Notes: generated from the letters alone by a model not told the origin. A stretch of 32,000 nucleotides of DNA from Megasphaera elsdenii DSM 20460 (GCF_003010495.1 NZ_CP027570.1:1950001-1982000), one strand, 5' to 3'. Positions 25,801-32,000 are shown, counted from the first letter of the stretch. Numbers and translations are program-made.

Positions 25801-26876
25801 AACGAGTTGCCGTAGCTATGAGCGGCGGCGTCGACAGTTCGGTCACAGCCGGTCTCTTGAAGCAGCAAGGGTATGATGTCATCGGCATTACCCTGCGCCT
25901 GTGGGAAGAAGATCCGGCTTGCACCATCGATAACGTCCACGCCTGCTGCTCCCTCAGTTCCGTCGACGATGCCAAAGCCGTCGCTTCGGTCCTGGGGATT
26001 CCCCATTATACTTTGGATTTCCGCGATATCTTCCGGCGCGACGTCATTGACTATTTCGTCGATGCTTACGTCCACGGCAAGACGCCCAATCCCTGTATTG
26101 CCTGCAATAAATTCATTAAGTTCGGCCTGCTCTGGGAGAAAGCCCGACAGTTCGGCGCCGATTTCCTGGCGACTGGTCATTACGCCCGCATCGAAAAGAA
26201 CGAAGCGACGGGAATCTATTCCTTGCTCCGCGGCACAGACCGCCGCAAGGACCAGTCCTATGTCCTCTATCAATTGACACAGGACTTGTTGCCGCATATT
26301 TTGTTCCCCATGGCCGACCTGGAAAAGGTCCATACGCGGGAACTGGCCAAGGAATGGGGCCTGCCGGTCTTCAATAAGCCCGAAAGCCAGGATATCTGCT
26401 TTATTCCGGACAACGATTATAAGGGATTTTTGCAGCACGAACGGAAGGGCATCTTCAAGCCTGGCGACTTCGTCGATAAAGAAGGCCATGTCATCGGCCG
26501 CCATAAAGGCATCGCCGCCTATACCATCGGCCAGCGCCGGGGCCTGAACCTCGGCGGTCCCGGCGGCCCTTATTACGTGACGGCCCTGGACGTAGCTCAT
26601 AATAAAGTCATCGTCGGTTCGGAACGGGACTTGTTCTCGAAGACGGTCCATGCCAGTGAAGCGACCTGGGTCGAACAGACGCCGGACGCTCCTTTCCGGG
26701 CCTTGGGCAAGATACGTTATGCTGCCCGGGAAGCGGCCTGCACGGTCTATCCCGATGGCGACAGCCTGCAGGTCGAATTCGACGACGCCCAGCGTGCCGT
26801 CACGGCCGGCCAGGCCTTGGTACTTTACGACGCCGACACAGGCGAACGCGTCCTGGGCGGTGGCGTTATCCAATAG
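25797..26876 (+). CDS. mnmA: tRNA 2-thiouridine(34) synthase
   Basis: Contains VAVAMSGGVDSSV (PP-loop), NPCIACNKFIKF and RKDQSYVLY. Length is 359 aa. Confidence 0.93.
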   Translation: MKRVAVAMSGGVDSSVTAGLLKQQGYDVIGITLRLWEEDPACTIDNVHACCSLSSVDDAKAVASVLGIPHYTLDFRDIFRRDVIDYFVDAYVHGKTPNPCIACNKFIKFGLLWEKARQFGADFLATGHYARIEKNEATGIYSLLRGTDRRKDQSYVLYQLTQDLLPHILFPMADLEKVHTRELAKEWGLPVFNKPESQDICFIPDNDYKGFLQHERKGIFKPGDFVDKEGHVIGRHKGIAAYTIGQRRGLNLGGPGGPYYVTALDVAHNKVIVGSERDLFSKTVHASEATWVEQTPDAPFRALGKIRYAAREAACTVYPDGDSLQVEFDDAQRAVTAGQALVLYDADTGERVLGGGVIQ

Positions 26877-26894
26877 AAAAAGAGGAGGACTACC

Positions 26895-26945
26895 GTGTCT
26901 ACAGATCATATCAGAAACTTTTCAATTATTGCTACATATCTCTGA
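26895..26945 (+). pseudogene. lepA: 5' stub of lepA (elongation factor 4) truncated by insertion of the integrative element
   Basis: A strong RBS (AGAGGAGG) precedes GTG 26895. The ORF encodes VSTDHIRNFSIIA, matching the invariant LepA N-terminus IRNFSIIAHIDHGKST, then diverges (TYL-stop) exactly where the G1 motif HIDHGKS should follow. Confidence 0.8.
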
Positions 26946-26954
26946 AACTCAGCT

Positions 26955-28079
26955 CTATGCCTCATTCTTCTTATCGTCTACTGCAACACTACTGCAACCG
27001 GGCAAAGAAACGCCTTTAATTTCGTCGTAGACCTCGTTTTGCATGGCGTTGATATAAATAGATGTCGTGACGATAGAAGAGTGTCTCAACTGCTTTGAGA
27101 TGGTTCTTAGAGGGACTCCCTCTTTGGCCAGTATCGTAGCATGTAGATGCCTCAATATATGGACCGAACCTCTGGGGGACACCCGTAACATAGCTCGGTG
27201 TAGCGTAGCCGTTACACTGTCTGGTTTAAGGTGTCTCCCATTTTTATCACAAAAGACGAATTCGCTACTGATTCCTGCCTTCCTGTATTCGTCTTTAAGG
27301 TTTGCAATCAGTTCCATTCCGTCGTCAGGTATCTGGACTATCTGTCCAGAGATGCCGTTCTTGGGAGTCTTTATATACAGACGATGAGATGTAGCCTGAC
27401 AGGTATAATTTCTCCTTACCGTAACGATACCTTTCTCTTCATCAATATCTTCCCACTTCAATCCGATTAGCTCTCCCCGTCGTAGGCCGGTATATAAACA
27501 AAATAATCCTAGGTATCTCATACCGATAGGGTGAAGTTCGTTCAGTGACTTAATGACATCCTCCACTTTCGGAAGTATGTATGGGTTCTGTTTGCGATGG
27601 CTTATAAAATCTAAATCAACCCCATGATGTATATATCCTTCTTTCTGAGCCTGTTTCAAAGCCCTCATATAGAATTTTACCGTCGTGTGAGTCGTAGCTT
27701 CTGCATAACCCATTCCTTTCATATTAGCTGCGAAAGCCTTCAATGTGGAATCTGTGACTTGTGATAGTTTGAGTTCCCCGGTAAGCCTTATGATTCTCCT
27801 GGATATAGATTGATAATTCTCTATGGTGCTGTTATTCGTAAGAGGCAGGCTATTGACATGGTGGGGAAGGTAATCAGCTACCGTCATATTCTTGCTCTGA
27901 GGGACGATTTCCCCCGATGTTAATTTCTCTTTTATCTTCTTCTTGAGTTTGGCCAACGCCTCGGTCTTGTTCTTTCCATAGGCGGTGATTCGTTTCTTGT
28001 CTATCGTCTCTTGGGCGCAATAAGTCCCATCTTTCCTTACATATACGGTTCCTTCTCCGTTGCTTCTCTTTCGTGCCAT
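26955..28079 (-). CDS. int: Tyrosine-type site-specific integrase
   Basis: The catalytic residues sit in the expected contexts: TGLRRGEL (R), HILRHLHAT (HxxR), LRHSS (H) and TTSIYI (Y). The N-terminus GEGTVYVRKDGTYCAQ is an arm-binding-type domain. Confidence 0.9.
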   Translation of the reverse strand: MARKRSNGEGTVYVRKDGTYCAQETIDKKRITAYGKNKTEALAKLKKKIKEKLTSGEIVPQSKNMTVADYLPHHVNSLPLTNNSTIENYQSISRRIIRLTGELKLSQVTDSTLKAFAANMKGMGYAEATTHTTVKFYMRALKQAQKEGYIHHGVDLDFISHRKQNPYILPKVEDVIKSLNELHPIGMRYLGLFCLYTGLRRGELIGLKWEDIDEEKGIVTVRRNYTCQATSHRLYIKTPKNGISGQIVQIPDDGMELIANLKDEYRKAGISSEFVFCDKNGRHLKPDSVTATLHRAMLRVSPRGSVHILRHLHATILAKEGVPLRTISKQLRHSSIVTTSIYINAMQNEVYDEIKGVSLPGCSSVAVDDKKNEA

Positions 28080-28108
28080 TCATACTCACCTCTTGTGTTT
28101 ATTATAAC

Positions 28109-28137
28109 ATTATATGCAATGACGCGGTAGATGACAA
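28109..28137 (-). promoter_or_regulatory. Putative leftward promoter for int (-35 TTGTCA, 17-nt spacer, -10 TATAAT, minus strand)
   Basis: Plus-strand TGACAA at 28132-28137 and ATTATA at 28109-28114. It lies ~30 nt upstream of the int ATG (28079). Confidence 0.5.
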
Positions 28138-28143
28138 AATGGC

Positions 28144-28172
28144 TTGACATAGAACATGCGTTCTATTATAAT
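28144..28172 (+). promoter_or_regulatory. Rightward consensus sigma-70-type promoter P1 with an inverted repeat in the spacer
   Basis: TTGACA (28144-28149), an exact 17-nt spacer, and TATAAT (28167-28172). The spacer is TAGAAC-ATGC-GTTCTA (28150-28165), an operator-like inverted repeat. Confidence 0.6.
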
Positions 28173-28215
28173 GAAAACAACAGGGAGAAAATTACAAAAA
28201 GTTAGTATAGTCAAT

Positions 28216-28244
28216 TTGACATACTCACTTACATGTAGTATAAT
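28216..28244 (+). promoter_or_regulatory. Rightward consensus sigma-70-type promoter P2
   Basis: TTGACA (28216-28221), an exact 17-nt spacer containing the palindrome TACATGTA (28230-28237), and TATAAT (28239-28244). It lies ~24 nt upstream of the Xis-like ORF. Confidence 0.6.
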
Positions 28245-28267
28245 AATCACAGGAAGTGAGTTAGGAG

Positions 28268-28441
28268 GTGAGCCCCATACTTCTCAAGACGAAAGAGGTC
28301 GCTGAGTACCTCAAGATTTCAGACCAGCAGGTAAGGCGGCTGGTGGACAAGAAGGAACTTCCGTGTATTAGAATCTCCCAAAGGGTCCTTCGGTTCAGGA
28401 AGGAAGACGTTGAAGAATTCATTTCAGGGAGGGAAATATAA
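28268..28441 (+). CDS. Excisionase/AlpA-type helix-turn-helix DNA-binding protein (57 aa; below the ORF-track size cutoff)
   Basis: My translation from GTG 28268 is VSPILLKTKEVAEYLKISDQQVRRLVDKKELPCIRISQRVLRFRKEDVEEFISGREI. This is the typical MerR-superfamily excisionase pattern. The stop overlaps the next ATG (TAATG). Confidence 0.7.
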   Translation: MSPILLKTKEVAEYLKISDQQVRRLVDKKELPCIRISQRVLRFRKEDVEEFISGREI

Positions 28442-28623
28442 TGGACCAATACATTGTGGAGTTCAGAATGTCGGGAAAGACTTTCCCGGAACACTATACC
28501 GTGGACACCCGGAAAGAGGCATACCAGCTCTTAGACGAGTTGATTGAAGAAGCCGAAGGCTGGGGGGACAGGTGGGAGGGTAAAATCTCGAAAGCTCACC
28601 ACTTCGACTATAAGTCCCACTAA
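28441..28623 (+). CDS. Hypothetical small protein (60 aa)
   Basis: A GGGAGGGA RBS is present, and the ORF is translationally coupled to the upstream ORF. I recognise no motif. Confidence 0.5.
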   Translation: MDQYIVEFRMSGKTFPEHYTVDTRKEAYQLLDELIEEAEGWGDRWEGKISKAHHFDYKSH

Positions 28624-28681
28624 GGGACTTCATTTACCCTTGAATACTCACTTTTAGTGATTTTTAATAGGAGGAATCATT

Positions 28682-29431
28682 ATGACAAACACAGAAATTA
28701 TGGAAGCATTGAAGGCACCGTTCAAACCGGAAGAGGTCATGTGGGTTATCGGACGCAAGAGCAAGGACAAGAGCAAAGCCGAAGCCATGGCTTACATCAG
28801 CTCCCGGGCGGTCATGGAACGTCTTGATGAAGTAGTAGGCCCCGATAAATGGGAAGTCGAATACATCCCGGCGGATATGGGGACAGCAACACGGACGACA
28901 TATAAAGGAGAAGAAACATATAGTATCAAAGGCTTCTTGGCCAAGATGACGTTGCATCTGCCGGAAGGTGATGTGTCGAGAATGGACGGAGCTAACTGCA
29001 CAGATTTCAGCCCGTTCAAAGGCGGTATTACCGGAGCCATGCGCCGTGTAGCTTCTGCTTTTGGCATTGGCCGTTACCTGTACAACCTGCCTCGTCAGTG
29101 GGTGCCTATTGACCAGTGGGGTAACTTTACAGAACGTCCGAAGCTTCCGAGTTGGGCGTTACCGGAAGGAACTGTTCAGGACGAACCGGAACCGAGACAG
29201 TCTTACCATCGTGAAGATTCCTACGAAGAACATCAGCCGCAGGCATCCTCGACTGGAGAAGTTATGATGCCGCCGAACACGAAGTACGCAGGCAAACCGG
29301 TATCTTCGGTTACGGACTTCGGTTATCTGACTTGGGTAGTCAATAAGTCTCGATTCTCGGAAGAAGTCAAGAACGCCGCAGCGAAAGTACTTGCCGATCA
29401 GCAGGCGGCTATGTATGACGAACCGGCTTAG
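28682..29431 (+). CDS. Rad52/22-family single-strand annealing protein (phage recombinase)
   Basis: LKAPFKPEEVMW...AYISSRAVMERLDEVVGPDKWEVEY...GAMRRVASAFGIGRYLYNLP matches the Rad52/Sak-type pattern (AYI.AR.V.DRLD...GP..W and FGIGRYLY). Confidence 0.7.
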   Translation: MTNTEIMEALKAPFKPEEVMWVIGRKSKDKSKAEAMAYISSRAVMERLDEVVGPDKWEVEYIPADMGTATRTTYKGEETYSIKGFLAKMTLHLPEGDVSRMDGANCTDFSPFKGGITGAMRRVASAFGIGRYLYNLPRQWVPIDQWGNFTERPKLPSWALPEGTVQDEPEPRQSYHREDSYEEHQPQASSTGEVMMPPNTKYAGKPVSSVTDFGYLTWVVNKSRFSEEVKNAAAKVLADQQAAMYDEPA

Positions 29432-29441
29432 GAGGTAGCCT

Positions 29442-29702
29442 ATGGAGTTAGACGTAAGACTTTGCCAGAAAGTAGGCGTAAGCGCGGCTATTGTCCATTC
29501 GGTCATTCGTAAGCAGTGCGAAGTGAAAGGTGTCCCCTTCGAGGGGCACCGGTTCGCTCGCATGTCCATTGGAGATATTAACCGTAAGATACCGTTCCTT
29601 TCGGCAAGGACAATAACAAGAGCGTTGGACCGACTCGAAGCAAAAGGGTTGGTAGAGAATAGAACATTCGTGGGAACCACAAAGTGGAGGAGAGCATTAT
29701 GA
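29442..29702 (+). CDS. Small winged-helix DNA-binding protein (86 aa)
   Basis: FLSARTITRALDRLEAKGLVEN is a MarR/wHTH-like recognition segment. The RBS is AGGAGG. Confidence 0.5.
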   Translation: MELDVRLCQKVGVSAAIVHSVIRKQCEVKGVPFEGHRFARMSIGDINRKIPFLSARTITRALDRLEAKGLVENRTFVGTTKWRRAL

Positions 29703-30130
29703 GTAGAATTAATGTTTACCAAAGGAATAAATGGGTTAATCTCTGGGTGAGTTACATGGGCGGGAAGAGGTTTTCTTGGCTTGTTTCTGCTAAGGCCACA
29801 ACTGATGAATTCGAGTGTGATTACTCTATGCTTAACAAGCTATGCAGGTCTGGGCTATCCAGTACAGCCAAGGGTATTTTCTCTTTTATACTCCTTAATC
29901 GGTATCTTCCCACGAAAGTCTGTCTATATGGACAGACAACTATTGCAAAGATGTATGGGTGCGCTAACAACACTGCCAGAAGAGCATTGAATGAACTCGA
30001 AGATAACAAAATTATTTACTCCCTCAAGATACACACTGGAAGGTATATAGCATACCAATACGTTATCAACGAATACAAAGAGTGGAACTTACCCGAAAAT
30101 AGTAAGGGGATACACGAGGAGAAAATTTGA
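29699..30130 (+). CDS. wHTH protein, tandem paralog 1 (143 aa)
   Basis: It has an ATGA overlap with the upstream ORF and a GGAGGA RBS. The central segment is TIAKMYGCANNTARRALNELEDNKII. It is a paralog of 30173..30646. Confidence 0.6.
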   Translation: MSRINVYQRNKWVNLWVSYMGGKRFSWLVSAKATTDEFECDYSMLNKLCRSGLSSTAKGIFSFILLNRYLPTKVCLYGQTTIAKMYGCANNTARRALNELEDNKIIYSLKIHTGRYIAYQYVINEYKEWNLPENSKGIHEEKI

Positions 30131-30172
30131 AAGTAGAACGTTCATAGGTAATAAGAAATGGAGGAAAGCACT

Positions 30173-30646
30173 ATGAACACAGAAAAGAAGAATATGATTT
30201 CGGTATATCCGGTTAATAAGTGGGTGAACAAGTGGGTCATAAAGAGAGGTGCTAGAGACTTCGTTTGGAGAATATCTACAAAAGCTCCTACAGATTCTTT
30301 ACATATATCTCCAGACCAAATGATGGTTTTAACAGAATCTGGATTATCTCCTACAGCTAAAAGTATATTTGCTTTTCTTTTCCATCACCGTTTTTCAACC
30401 ACAAGAGTTTGTCTATATGGCTCGTTGACCATTGCACGAATGTACGGATGTGCGAATAATACTGCCAAAAAAGCTCTGAAAGAACTCGAAGCTAGTAACA
30501 TTATAAATAAATTGAAGATTTACACTGGGAAGAATGTATCGTATCAGTATTACATTACCGACTATGGCAAATGGATTCTCCCTAAAAATAGGCGTTCTGG
30601 TGAAAATATTGAAGCCCCTATGCAAGTGATTGAATTAGATGAGTAG
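30173..30646 (+). CDS. wHTH protein, tandem paralog 2 (157 aa)
   Basis: About half of ungapped aligned residues are identical to paralog 1 (my manual count, 69 of ~133), e.g. NKWVN.WV, SGLS.TAK.IF.F, VCLYG..TIA.MYGCANNTA..AL.ELE. The RBS context is also duplicated. Confidence 0.6.
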   Translation: MNTEKKNMISVYPVNKWVNKWVIKRGARDFVWRISTKAPTDSLHISPDQMMVLTESGLSPTAKSIFAFLFHHRFSTTRVCLYGSLTIARMYGCANNTAKKALKELEASNIINKLKIYTGKNVSYQYYITDYGKWILPKNRRSGENIEAPMQVIELDE

Positions 30647-30667
30647 GGTGTCAATAATTAATCTCTA

Positions 30668-30691
30668 TCTAAACTTCTAAACCTCTAAACC
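30668..30691 (+). repeat. Three direct 8-bp-period iterons TCTAAAC(y)
   Basis: TCTAAAC occurs at 30668, 30676 and 30684. Confidence 0.7.
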
Positions 30692-30733
30692 TGTCCGAGG
30701 TAACGCACCTCTTACGAGGTGCTACCTCGGACA
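30692..30733. repeat. 18-bp-stem hairpin with a 2-nt bulge
   Basis: In TGTCCGAGGTA-AC-GCACCTC-TTAC-GAGGTGC-TACCTCGGACA the 11-bp and 7-bp stems pair perfectly. No U-tract follows. Confidence 0.8.
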
Positions 30734-30896
30734 ATAAGAGATTCGTTCGCTTTCGCTCTCTCATCTCTCTAGTATTACATACTAGTTAATTAATTAATTT
30801 AAATTCTAAAGTTCTACACTAACTCTAGAATTACAATCTTAAAATAGCTCGTTGACCACAGGCCAATGAGTTATCTTAATTAATTAAATATAATAA

Positions 30897-30946
30897 GTTG
30901 GTATGATTCTTTATCTGGAGGTAGAAAGAACGATACCAAGTAATTA
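30897..30946 (+). repeat. 50-bp stem-loop repeat, copy 1
   Basis: GTTGGTATGATTC...ATACCAAGTAATTA has the same 36-nt arm spacing as copy 2. The arms are mutually inverted (TTGGTAT/ATACCAA). The loop contains GGAGGTAGAAA, identical to the RBS region at 31163-31173. Confidence 0.75.
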
Positions 30947-31107
30947 CTTGTATATGTTAGATTGATAATAGAGAAATTCTTAACCGGTTAAAAGATTAGA
31001 TAAAGAAGATGTATCCCCAACCACGGGCGGGGGATAGATATTAATTAAATGAATGTTTTTAATCTCCTCATTTTCTCCCGGTTAATGTTTTACTCATCAT
31101 TAGATGA

Positions 31108-31157
31108 GTTGGTATGGTTCGTTCTACCGCCCGTGAATGAATCATACCAAGTAATTA
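31108..31157 (+). repeat. 50-bp stem-loop repeat, copy 2
   Basis: GTTGGTATGGTTC...ATACCAAGTAATTA gives a 16-bp stem if two G-U pairs are allowed on the + strand. It lies immediately upstream of the RBS of ORF 31173. Confidence 0.75.
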
Positions 31158-31172
31158 ATATAGGAGGTAGAA

Positions 31173-31481
31173 ATGAACAAAGACACTGAACGAGATAGGT
31201 TAGCTCAACTCTACCTTGACCAGACCGTCGGCAAAGAATGTTGGGGGTATCAGAACTACGAGAATGTAATGGAAGCTTTCAACAAGAGCCCTGACGGGGA
31301 CATCACAAATATGATAAACTATCTACAGACCCATGTGATGCCTCTAGGTACACCTCTCCGGGAACTGTATCATGAAGCTTCCTCATGGAGAGCTTTCGAC
31401 TACTACAAGGAACAGCCTCGTCCCAAACTGACTGACGAGGTGGCTTACTCCATTGACATGCTGATGAAATTAAGGGGGTAA
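31173..31481 (+). CDS. Hypothetical protein (102 aa)
   Basis: A strong RBS (AGGAGG) is present and the composition is coding-like. I recognise no motif. Confidence 0.5.
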   Translation: MNKDTERDRLAQLYLDQTVGKECWGYQNYENVMEAFNKSPDGDITNMINYLQTHVMPLGTPLRELYHEASSWRAFDYYKEQPRPKLTDEVAYSIDMLMKLRG

Positions 31482-31485
31482 TATT

Positions 31486-31698
31486 ATGACAGAACAGGAA
31501 AGACAGGATAAGATTTTTAAAGGATTGGTCATGTTATTGATGCAAGTCGATAAATACTTTGAACGGGAGGATGATGGTGCCGAGAAAGGAGAATTGGTTA
31601 TTCTCAAAGGCCTTATCCGGAAACGGAAAGATAGTTTACTTGACTTACTGGAGAGAAAGAATGATAACATCATCCAGTTCCCGGGATTGAAAGACTGA
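31486..31698 (+). CDS. Hypothetical protein (70 aa)
   Basis: The RBS is AAGGGGG. The sequence is charged and helical-looking. I recognise no motif. Confidence 0.45.
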   Translation: MTEQERQDKIFKGLVMLLMQVDKYFEREDDGAEKGELVILKGLIRKRKDSLLDLLERKNDNIIQFPGLKD

Positions 31699-31714
31699 TA
31701 TTCAGGAGGCACAC

Positions 31715-32000
31715 ATGGACATCCAAAACATCATCATTCAGAAAATAGATTTACCACAGTTCATCAAAGATTACGCTCATGTGGAACTTGTACGCAAAGG
31801 GAATGGCTGGCGGTGTAAATGCCCCATCCATGAGAACTCTGTCAATCCAGAGGCTATGTATGTTGACGACCGTGGCGGTTACTACTGCTTCGCCTGCAAC
31901 TCGGGAGGGAATGTCATCAACTTCCTTTCTGATTACGAGCATATCAGCTACAGTGCCGCCACAGAACGTCTTGCCTCTATGCTGAATATCAACCTCAAAG
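31715..32000 (+). CDS. DNA primase, N-terminal CHC2 zinc-finger domain (partial; continues past window end; absent from ORF track)
   Basis: My translation from ATG 31715 (RBS AGGAGG) is MDIQNIIIQKIDLPQFIKDYAHVELVRKGNGWRCKCPIHENSVNPEAMYVDDRGGYYCFACNSGGNVINFLSDYEHISY... The pattern C.CP.H...C..C..GG.VI.F is the DnaG/phage-primase zinc finger. The frame has no stop up to 32000. Confidence 0.75.
   Translation, partial: MDIQNIIIQKIDLPQFIKDYAHVELVRKGNGWRCKCPIHENSVNPEAMYVDDRGGYYCFACNSGGNVINFLSDYEHISYSAATERLASMLNINLK

Follow-up and report, generated by a model that had tools for sequence, protein, structure and literature searches.

A repeat-rich non-coding gap beside an initiator-like gene is a candidate replication origin region of a Megasphaera elsdenii prophage

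What is the role of a 526-bp stretch (30647-31172) that is the largest non-coding part of a 43.4-kb prophage and is filled with repeats and palindromes? The window analysed is 32,000 nucleotides of DNA from Megasphaera elsdenii DSM 20460 (NZ_CP027570.1), corresponding to positions 1950001-1982000 of the single-contig 2.48-Mb genome. An initial annotation of this window had proposed that the stretch, here called the gap, is either a replication origin or a regulatory RNA locus. Our comparison of related loci points to the first of these: we estimate a probability of about 0.55 that the gap is a cis-acting replication origin region of the prophage, associated with an initiator cassette.

The G+C content falls from ~58% to ~43% at window position 26900 and rises again ~43 kb later. 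Because a 53-bp direct repeat lies at both edges of this shift, we interpret the region as an integrated prophage of 43.4 kb, of which the window holds the first 5 kb only. The integration site of this temperate phage is the 5' end of lepA. From the left end, an integrase gene on the minus strand is followed by two rightward promoters, an HTH_17 excisionase-like gene, a 60-aa gene, a gene for a Rad52/Erf-like annealing protein, an 86-aa wHTH gene, two HTH_36-like paralogues (rep1 and rep2) and the gap. After the gap come a 102-aa gene, a 70-aa gene and a gene for a 659-aa protein in which a DnaG-type primase is fused to a DnaB-family helicase. The relevant features around the gap are listed here, with the strand given where one applies; the two clades of related loci are defined below.

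26877-26929: attL, left copy of the 53-bp direct repeat
genome positions 2020272-2020324 (beyond the window): right att copy
29442-29702, plus strand: 86-aa wHTH gene, 96-100% conserved in clade 1, with a weak match to the N-terminus of a phage replication initiator
29684-30130, plus strand: rep1, initiator-like gene of the HTH_36 type (class B), shortened at the C-terminus and missing a class-B repeat/hairpin stretch of its own
30158-30646, plus strand: rep2, HTH_36-like and initiator-like gene of class A that immediately precedes the gap
31173-31698, plus strand: two small genes (102 aa and 70 aa) of unassigned function, found after the gap in every relative that has the gap
31715-32000, continuing past the window to 33694, plus strand: 659-aa DnaG-type primase fused to a DnaB-family helicase

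GC skew climbs steadily across the prophage, but since such a rise fits all genes being on one strand, it is uninformative. Two IS copies are carried by the prophage, and the prophage may be decaying. A P4-like RNA immunity was weighed because no repressor was visible, and was dropped when an XRE-type HTH gene was found at 69667-70032; this gene adjoins attR, which adjoins the integrase gene in the circular form.

Searches of INPHARED phages (50,697 phage records) and PLSDB plasmids detected no relatives, nor did searches of 38 genomes from the same family and 400 from the class. No deposited phage protein exceeds 32% identity to the primase. A scan of genome contigs with short G+C-rich patterns returned chance matches only, and pattern and protein scans of IMG/VR yielded one true relative (L025). 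Proteins closely homologous to rep2 and to the 102-aa product, taken from a large protein collection, led to about 20 syntenic loci from animal-gut metagenomes, and the locus set was completed with one IMG/VR contig and three metagenome contigs. Outside the rep cassette, clade 1 loci share ~90-99% identity with the window. In clade 2 (L054, L055/56 and L057), the genes are ~58-75% and the gap ~65% identical to clade 1. One further locus (L059), with a weakly matching Rep homologue in another family, differs in layout and was set aside as uninformative.

The repeats, palindromes and hairpins described by the initial annotation were all recovered at the same positions by reading of the sequence (30300-32000) and repeat finding (30600-31250). 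Together with their variation among relatives, the features of the gap are as follows.

30660-30743: end of the allele-linked cassette, an inverted repeat (AATCTCTAT / ATAAGAGATT) flanking the three 8-bp repeats and HP1
30668-30691, plus strand: three tandem 8-bp units YTCTAAAC, with TCTAAAC at 30668, 30676 and 30684
30692-30733: hairpin HP1, with an 11-bp outer stem, a 2-nt bulge and a 7-bp inner stem
30736-31172: conserved core of 437 bp, with 91-99% identity across clade 1 irrespective of the rep allele
30769-30785: palindrome CTAGTAT-TAC-ATACTAG, which in clade 2 is CTGGTAT-TCC-ATACCAG (one compensatory pair)
30779-30978: 74.5% A+T, the highest 200-bp value in the prophage and a candidate unwinding stretch
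30786-30797 and 30876-30887: TTAATTAA tracts inside these most A+T-rich 200 bp
30802-30832: inverted repeat AATTCTA.AG / CT.TAGAATT with a variable spacer, of which only 5 bp are kept in clade 2
30846-30872: hairpin d, with a conserved loop ACCACNGGC and compensatory double changes in 4 of 7 stem pairs
30898-30939: stem-loop 1, a palindrome of 42 bp built from two 16-mers (TTGGTATGRTTCNTTC) and not present in clade 2 or L050
30976-31155: least variable 180 bp of the module (diversity 0.012-0.026)
30980-30991: perfect 12-bp palindrome TTAACCGGTTAA; CCGGTTAA occurs again at 31078
31012-31036: hairpin g, TATCCCC-N11-GGGGATA, with a stem that is invariant in both clades
31093-31108: hairpin CTCATC-ATTA-GATGAG, invariant in clade 1
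31109-31150: stem-loop 2, a 42-bp palindrome of two 16-mers, invariant in clade 1

As annotated, the gap is free of ORFs of at least 60 aa on both strands; a conserved small peptide was ruled out, as the short ORFs differ between the two clades. The high degree of order that had been noted in the gap exceeds chance, with a tandem-triple 7-mer occurring in 0 of 2000 dinucleotide shuffles. Single-strand fold z-scores are -8.9 for the plus strand and -12.7 for the minus strand, and perfect 7-bp stems alone show no more than a weak enrichment (4 in the gap, 0.68 on average in shuffles, of which 57 of 2000 reach 4). The three tracts containing TTAATTAA are also real. Their sites start at 30786, 30790, 30876, 30880 and 31041, so that the gap holds five of the six sites in the prophage and five of the 23 in the 2.48-Mb genome. 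The same is true of the duplicated ~50-nt stem-loop, whose two copies lie 211 bp apart. The arms are four copies of the 16-mer TTGGTATGRTTCNTTC in alternating orientation (30898 plus, 30924 minus, 31109 plus, 31135 minus), and these four are unique in the genome (23-28 bits, compared to 19.8 for the next-best match). One detail fared less well. The 11-mer GGAGGTAGAAA, said to be shared by the loop of stem-loop 1 and the start of the following gene, is indeed present at 30917 and 31163, but it is not conserved, relatives carrying other loops in stem-loop 1. As the 11-mer is peculiar to the window, functional mimicry of the ribosome-binding site was ruled out. No DnaA boxes were found in the gap.

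Alignment of the gap across loci revealed a sharp boundary at 30735/30736. To its right lies the 437-bp core common to clade 1 loci; to its left, the sequence of the ~90 bp that hold the three 8-bp repeats and HP1 depends on the Rep allele. Two Rep classes can be told apart by their N-terminal ~55 residues and their C-terminal tail. Class A is accompanied by TCTAA-type repeats of 8-9 bp abutting a hairpin of the HP1 type (HP1-A) in 7/7 loci, on two diverged backbones (two of the loci belong to clade 2). In the window, the YTCTAAAC units begin 21 nt past the rep2 stop codon, and their position is kept in all class-A relatives, while class-B relatives have other direct repeats. Within clade 1, all five class-B loci carry direct repeats of the forms TTGTNTATATC, TAGTGT..TTTA or AGTCTTGT.TAT, together with a hairpin, GCTCTCCCG...CGGGGGAGC, that differs from HP1-A. 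In clade 2, the sole class-B locus carries a third version of the repeat/hairpin stretch. Overall, the type of repeat and hairpin tracks the Rep class in 12/12 class-assignable loci. The window and L017 have tandem rep genes: a class-B gene, truncated at the C-terminus and lacking repeats of its own, comes first, and a complete class-A cassette follows. Two distant contigs (L022 and L023) have neither a rep gene nor the gap, and there the 86-aa gene and the 102-aa gene homologue overlap directly. This indicates that the rep gene and the gap are gained or lost together.

Are the Rep proteins initiators? Both rep1 and rep2 match PHROG families of replication initiators and DnaD-like loaders (E 1e-6 to 1e-7). 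For Pfam HTH_36, rep1 scores 27.6 bits and rep2 20 bits, with a cut-off of 25. The rep proteins had no NCBIfam match, and a sequence search of the PDB returned generic HTH matches only (E ~0.2). An AlphaFold2 model of Rep, built with 10 sequences, was poor (pLDDT 45). Since rep2 falls below the Pfam cut-off and the model is poor, rep2 is a putative initiator, assigned from low-scoring profile hits. All Rep alleles are near-identical in the predicted recognition helix (NNTARKALKELE) and in the wing. Because this helix is nearly invariant across Rep classes, the allele-specific repeats may not be its target, and the linkage between repeats and initiator may reflect mere adjacency within a recombination cassette.

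The 437-bp core is conserved at least as well as the neighbouring genes. Compared to its least variable 180 bp, diversity in the 102-aa, 70-aa and primase genes is mostly 0.05-0.12 in clade 1; elsewhere in that clade, only two parts are equally invariant, namely the place where the two small genes join and the zinc-ribbon portion of the primase. That the right part of the gap and the zinc-ribbon region of the primase are the least variable parts of the module is a hint that the primase may recognise the hairpins.

We scored nine local hairpins on a 13-sequence alignment of the core from clade 1. Pairing was seen in 99.4% of cells, compared to ~40% when the partners were slid by 1-3 columns, and three pairs had changed on both sides. 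Variable columns were rarer in stems than outside them (7/148 vs 42/279; Fisher p = 0.0012). Covariation across homologues, which had been suggested as a check, was then assessed over both clades: compensatory double changes were found in 15 of 62 pairs, distributed over six hairpins or palindromes, and, as the relatives are few and closely related, they represent a handful of independent events. The rest of the 62 pairs comprise 40 that are invariant, 1 with a one-sided change that still pairs, and 6 that include non-pairs. HP1 has three compensatory pairs in its outer stem, and its inner stem is wholly different in clade 2 yet pairs perfectly. For stem-loop 2, 6 of 16 pairs differ in clade 2 by compensatory double changes. 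The second TTAATTAA tract and stem-loop 1 are missing from clade 2 and L050, suggesting that both are dispensable or recent. As judged from these alignments, the hairpins are maintained as structures, not as sequences. Template switching between the arms of inverted repeats can invert spacers and homogenise arms (PMC8604942), and it could yield part of the "compensatory" pattern without selection for pairing.

The 9-bp inverted repeat formed by CACGGGCGG at 31022 and its complement CCGCCCGTG at 31127 places complementary sequences in the loops of hairpin g and stem-loop 2. In clade 1, these loops are complementary over the 9 nt of CACGGGCGG / CCGCCCGTG. The corresponding pairs in clade 2 are CCGTGG / CCACGG in L054 and L057 and CCGCGG / CCGCGG in L055, each of 6 nt. 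As all of these loops are CCRYGG-like near-palindromes, the complementarity is partly automatic. Furthermore, the clade 2 loop of hairpin g resembles the inverted clade 1 loop (9/11 bases match when inverted, 6/11 when compared directly). For these two reasons, we regard kissing of the hairpin g loop with that of stem-loop 2 as possible only.

Two hallmarks of an origin are present in the gap, namely tandem direct repeats adjoining an initiator-like gene (the three YTCTAAAC units) and an A+T-rich stretch beside the repeats (30779-30978). Against this reading, three units with an 8-bp period are short for classical iterons. If the gap is an origin, the small HTH_36 protein encoded by rep2 would bind within it, the three 8-bp repeats and HP1 would be the part matched to the allele class of the initiator, and the A+T-rich stretch at 30779-30978 would melt. 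The palindromes (hairpins d and g and both 42-bp stem-loops) may then extrude as single-stranded hairpins or bind protein, and they could serve as loading or priming sites for the phage primase-helicase encoded downstream.

A more specific form of this scheme, which we regard as improbable, would have the hairpins act as single-stranded initiation signals for the DnaG-DnaB fusion, with kissing of the hairpin g and stem-loop 2 loops, in single-stranded DNA or in a transcript, gating the firing of the origin. This would amount to an RSF1010-like initiator-plus-ssi origin in a tailed phage. RSF1010 oriV has ssiA and ssiB, inverted repeats of ~40 nt, along with iterons and an A+T-rich stretch, in a replicon with a primase and helicase of its own (PMC8567376). 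The two 42-bp palindromes of the gap, with their opposite strand preference, are similar. Unlike the prophage enzyme, the RSF1010 primase RepB' is unrelated to the DnaG type, and clade 2 has one palindrome only. Priming at the hairpins of the gap is pure inference.

The explanation that competes best with an origin is that the gap is a transcribed, structured spacer in the early operon and has no origin function. HP1 and hairpin g would then be terminators or hairpins for processing or stability, and the palindromes would be operators that set the expression of the 102-aa, 70-aa and primase-helicase genes. Two perfect TTGACA-17-TATAAT promoters are present at 28144 and 28216, and all genes from 28268 on are on the plus strand. 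A scan for promoters and terminators found no sigma-70-like promoter and no terminator inside 30647-31172. With promoters upstream, genes on the plus strand and no sigma-70-like promoter inside the gap, read-through transcription is likely, a point in favor of such a spacer. The position of stem-loop 2, which ends 12 nt before the ribosome-binding site, is also consistent with a role in the transcript, as are the loop complementarity kept in three versions (9, 6 and 6 nt) and the T-rich run ATTTCTTTCTTTATT that follows hairpin g in clade 2 like that of an intrinsic terminator. In the window itself, however, the gap has no terminator-like site: HP1 is followed by AATAAGAG, with no T-run on either strand.

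The mismatches in the second stem-loop had been described as compatible with G-U pairing on the plus strand only, a hint of RNA-level structure. This holds for stem-loop 2, which folds better on the plus strand (-20.8 vs -14.0 kcal/mol), but stem-loop 1 shows the opposite preference in most variants, for example in L015 (-13.7 kcal/mol on plus vs -21.7 kcal/mol on minus). Across six hairpins in both clades, wobble cells read on the plus strand comprise 12 G.T and 9 A.C, with no consistent bias. The lack of such a bias fits DNA-level inverted repeats better than a plus-strand RNA. There was also no Rfam match at E up to 1 in 26500-32000 on both strands. Finally, relatives without a rep gene have no leader between the 86-aa and 102-aa genes, which are directly coupled, showing that the downstream genes do not need the gap for this purpose. 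We consider a purely transcriptional spacer unlikely.

A free-standing small RNA or RNAs, such as a replication primer or control RNA relying on ColE1-like kissing of hairpin g with stem-loop 2, appears very improbable. The fold is very stable on both strands, the loop-loop complementarity is kept in both clades, and extended -10-like motifs (TGGTATGAT) occur in the arms of the stem-loops, all of which speak for such an RNA. However, the TGGTATGAT motif is lost in clade 2, promoter-like sites are absent inside the gap, and the Rfam and wobble results weigh against an RNA here as they do for the spacer. The CCRYGG-like form of all the loops further reduces the value of their complementarity.

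Least probable of all is a recombination joint between phage modules whose palindromes arose from replication slippage or template switching and have no dedicated function: it would account for the swapping of the rep cassette at fixed boundaries, for the tandem rep genes, the deletions (L050) and the breakpoint within stem-loop 1 (L049) that occur in or beside the gap, and for the apparent inversion of the hairpin g loop between clades, but not for a right-hand 180 bp that varies less than most coding sequence, for substitutions that avoid stems, or for hairpins that survive between clades at ~65% overall identity (stem-loop 1, absent from clade 2, excepted).

Of the two functions put forward in the initial annotation, the replication origin is thus the one favored by gene context, A+T content, linkage to the cassette, joint presence and absence with rep, and compensatory changes. 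The regulatory RNA gained no support, since Rfam matches, internal promoters, terminators and a wobble bias were not found and the shared 11-mer is not conserved.

A replication origin of this layout would have partial counterparts in several known systems. In SaPI pri-rep-ori modules, reportedly studied by Ubeda et al. in 2007 and 2012, repeats of 6-8 bp are said to lie immediately 3' of the initiator gene with an A+T-rich stretch adjoining. SaPIs are reportedly integrative elements with primase and helicase functions of their own, in which initiator and origin are matched allele by allele. The gap is similar in having short repeats 3' of rep, an A+T-rich stretch and a repeat type that tracks the Rep class. 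While the SaPI Rep acts as the helicase itself, with specificity in its C-terminus, the candidate initiator here is a wHTH protein of 157-182 aa, and the helicase is fused to the DnaG primase encoded downstream. The prophage also differs in having a single set of three units that abuts a strong hairpin.

Lambda-type and iteron plasmid origins are linked to their initiators, have direct repeats followed by an A+T-rich stretch, and are exchanged together with the initiator among related phages. The gap shares the linkage to an initiator-like gene, the order of repeats and A+T-rich stretch, and the joint exchange. In ori-lambda, four 19-bp repeats lie inside the O gene, whereas the repeats described here are outside the gene, 8 bp long and three in number, and the recognition helix stays constant across repeat types. 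The origins of Streptococcus thermophilus Sfi21-type phages and of Lactococcus c2 phages are A+T-rich, ORF-free stretches of a few hundred bp with direct and inverted repeats. These origins of Firmicutes phages adjoin primase or helicase genes and were defined by plasmid-borne interference or replication tests. The gap is likewise A+T-rich, ORF-free, filled with repeats and near a primase/helicase gene, but sequence similarity to the dairy-phage origins is absent (50,697 phage records searched). In the Vibrio satellite PLE, a repeat-rich non-coding origin with inverted sub-repeats and a single element-encoded protein, RepA, are needed for replication (Barth et al. 2020, PMC7145576). The gap is similarly non-coding, repeat-rich and located beside an element-encoded putative initiator. 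Unlike the PLE RepA, Rep is predicted here to be HTH_36-like.

Megasphaera is an anaerobe of the gut and rumen. If our reading is correct, it defines the replication origin and an exchangeable initiator cassette of a family of Megasphaera phages with no close relative among deposited phage genomes. The element is of an ordinary kind in an unstudied phage family, and general concepts would be left unchanged. It could aid the construction of replicons or phage-based tools for Negativicutes, and the relatives would offer naturally matched initiator/origin variants for studies of origin specificity.

The low-G+C prophage spans 43.4 kb and is enclosed by direct repeats of the attachment type:
26877-26929 of the window and 2020272-2020324 of the genome (the latter beyond the window): 53-bp direct repeats.
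A lepA-like gene (MSTDHIRNFSII...) has its ribosome-binding site and initial codons within the repeat, and is thereby restored at the opposite end of the prophage. Beyond the window, but in its numbering, lie two further kinds of feature:
34098-35290 and 44616-45808, opposite in strand to the phage genes: two copies of an insertion sequence whose ORFs measure 93 and 304 aa.
69667-70032, minus strand: a 121-aa XRE-type HTH protein, adjoining attR.
The prophage may be decaying. In the circular phage, the gene for the XRE-type protein would lie next to the integrase gene. This position makes the protein a likely repressor; the prophage is not repressor-less.

The integrase and the excisionase-like gene are separated by three back-to-back promoters of the sigma-70 type, all perfect or near-perfect matches:
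28109-28244, leftward: one promoter, TTGTCA-17-TATAAT.
28109-28244, rightward: two promoters, TTGACA-17-TATAAT.

Two stretches outside the gene-free gap match its right-hand part in invariance within clade 1, with a joint range of nucleotide diversity of 0.003-0.028:
31455-31515: the stretch where the 102-aa and 70-aa genes meet.
31695-31875: the zinc-ribbon part of the primase.
The remainder of the 102-aa, 70-aa and primase genes carries 3-5 times more variation.

The size of the primase-helicase gene differs between relatives. Its product is 659 aa in most and 957-1005 aa in some (the primase genes of related loci L015, 2552-5363, L054, L055 and L057). A faint LAGLIDADG match within the L015 protein suggests an intein or homing endonuclease. 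At another locus (L009, 5663-7642) the primase-helicase is split into 350 and 282 aa. One copy of the replication module is truncated:
L049, 1352-7491: a related locus in which the module begins inside stem-loop 1, a 42-bp palindrome of the gap.
It adjoins an IS66-like remnant and its primase ORF is shortened. Judged from their translations, the neighbouring genes look like type III restriction-modification genes.

The left-hand modules that precede this same replication module can differ considerably (in L010-L014, the part ahead of the 60-aa gene; in L006, 778-1998). One of them carries a DNA polymerase III alpha-like gene in place of an integrase, and another a NUMOD4-type homing endonuclease. 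This joining of one module to differing partners shows strong mosaicism.
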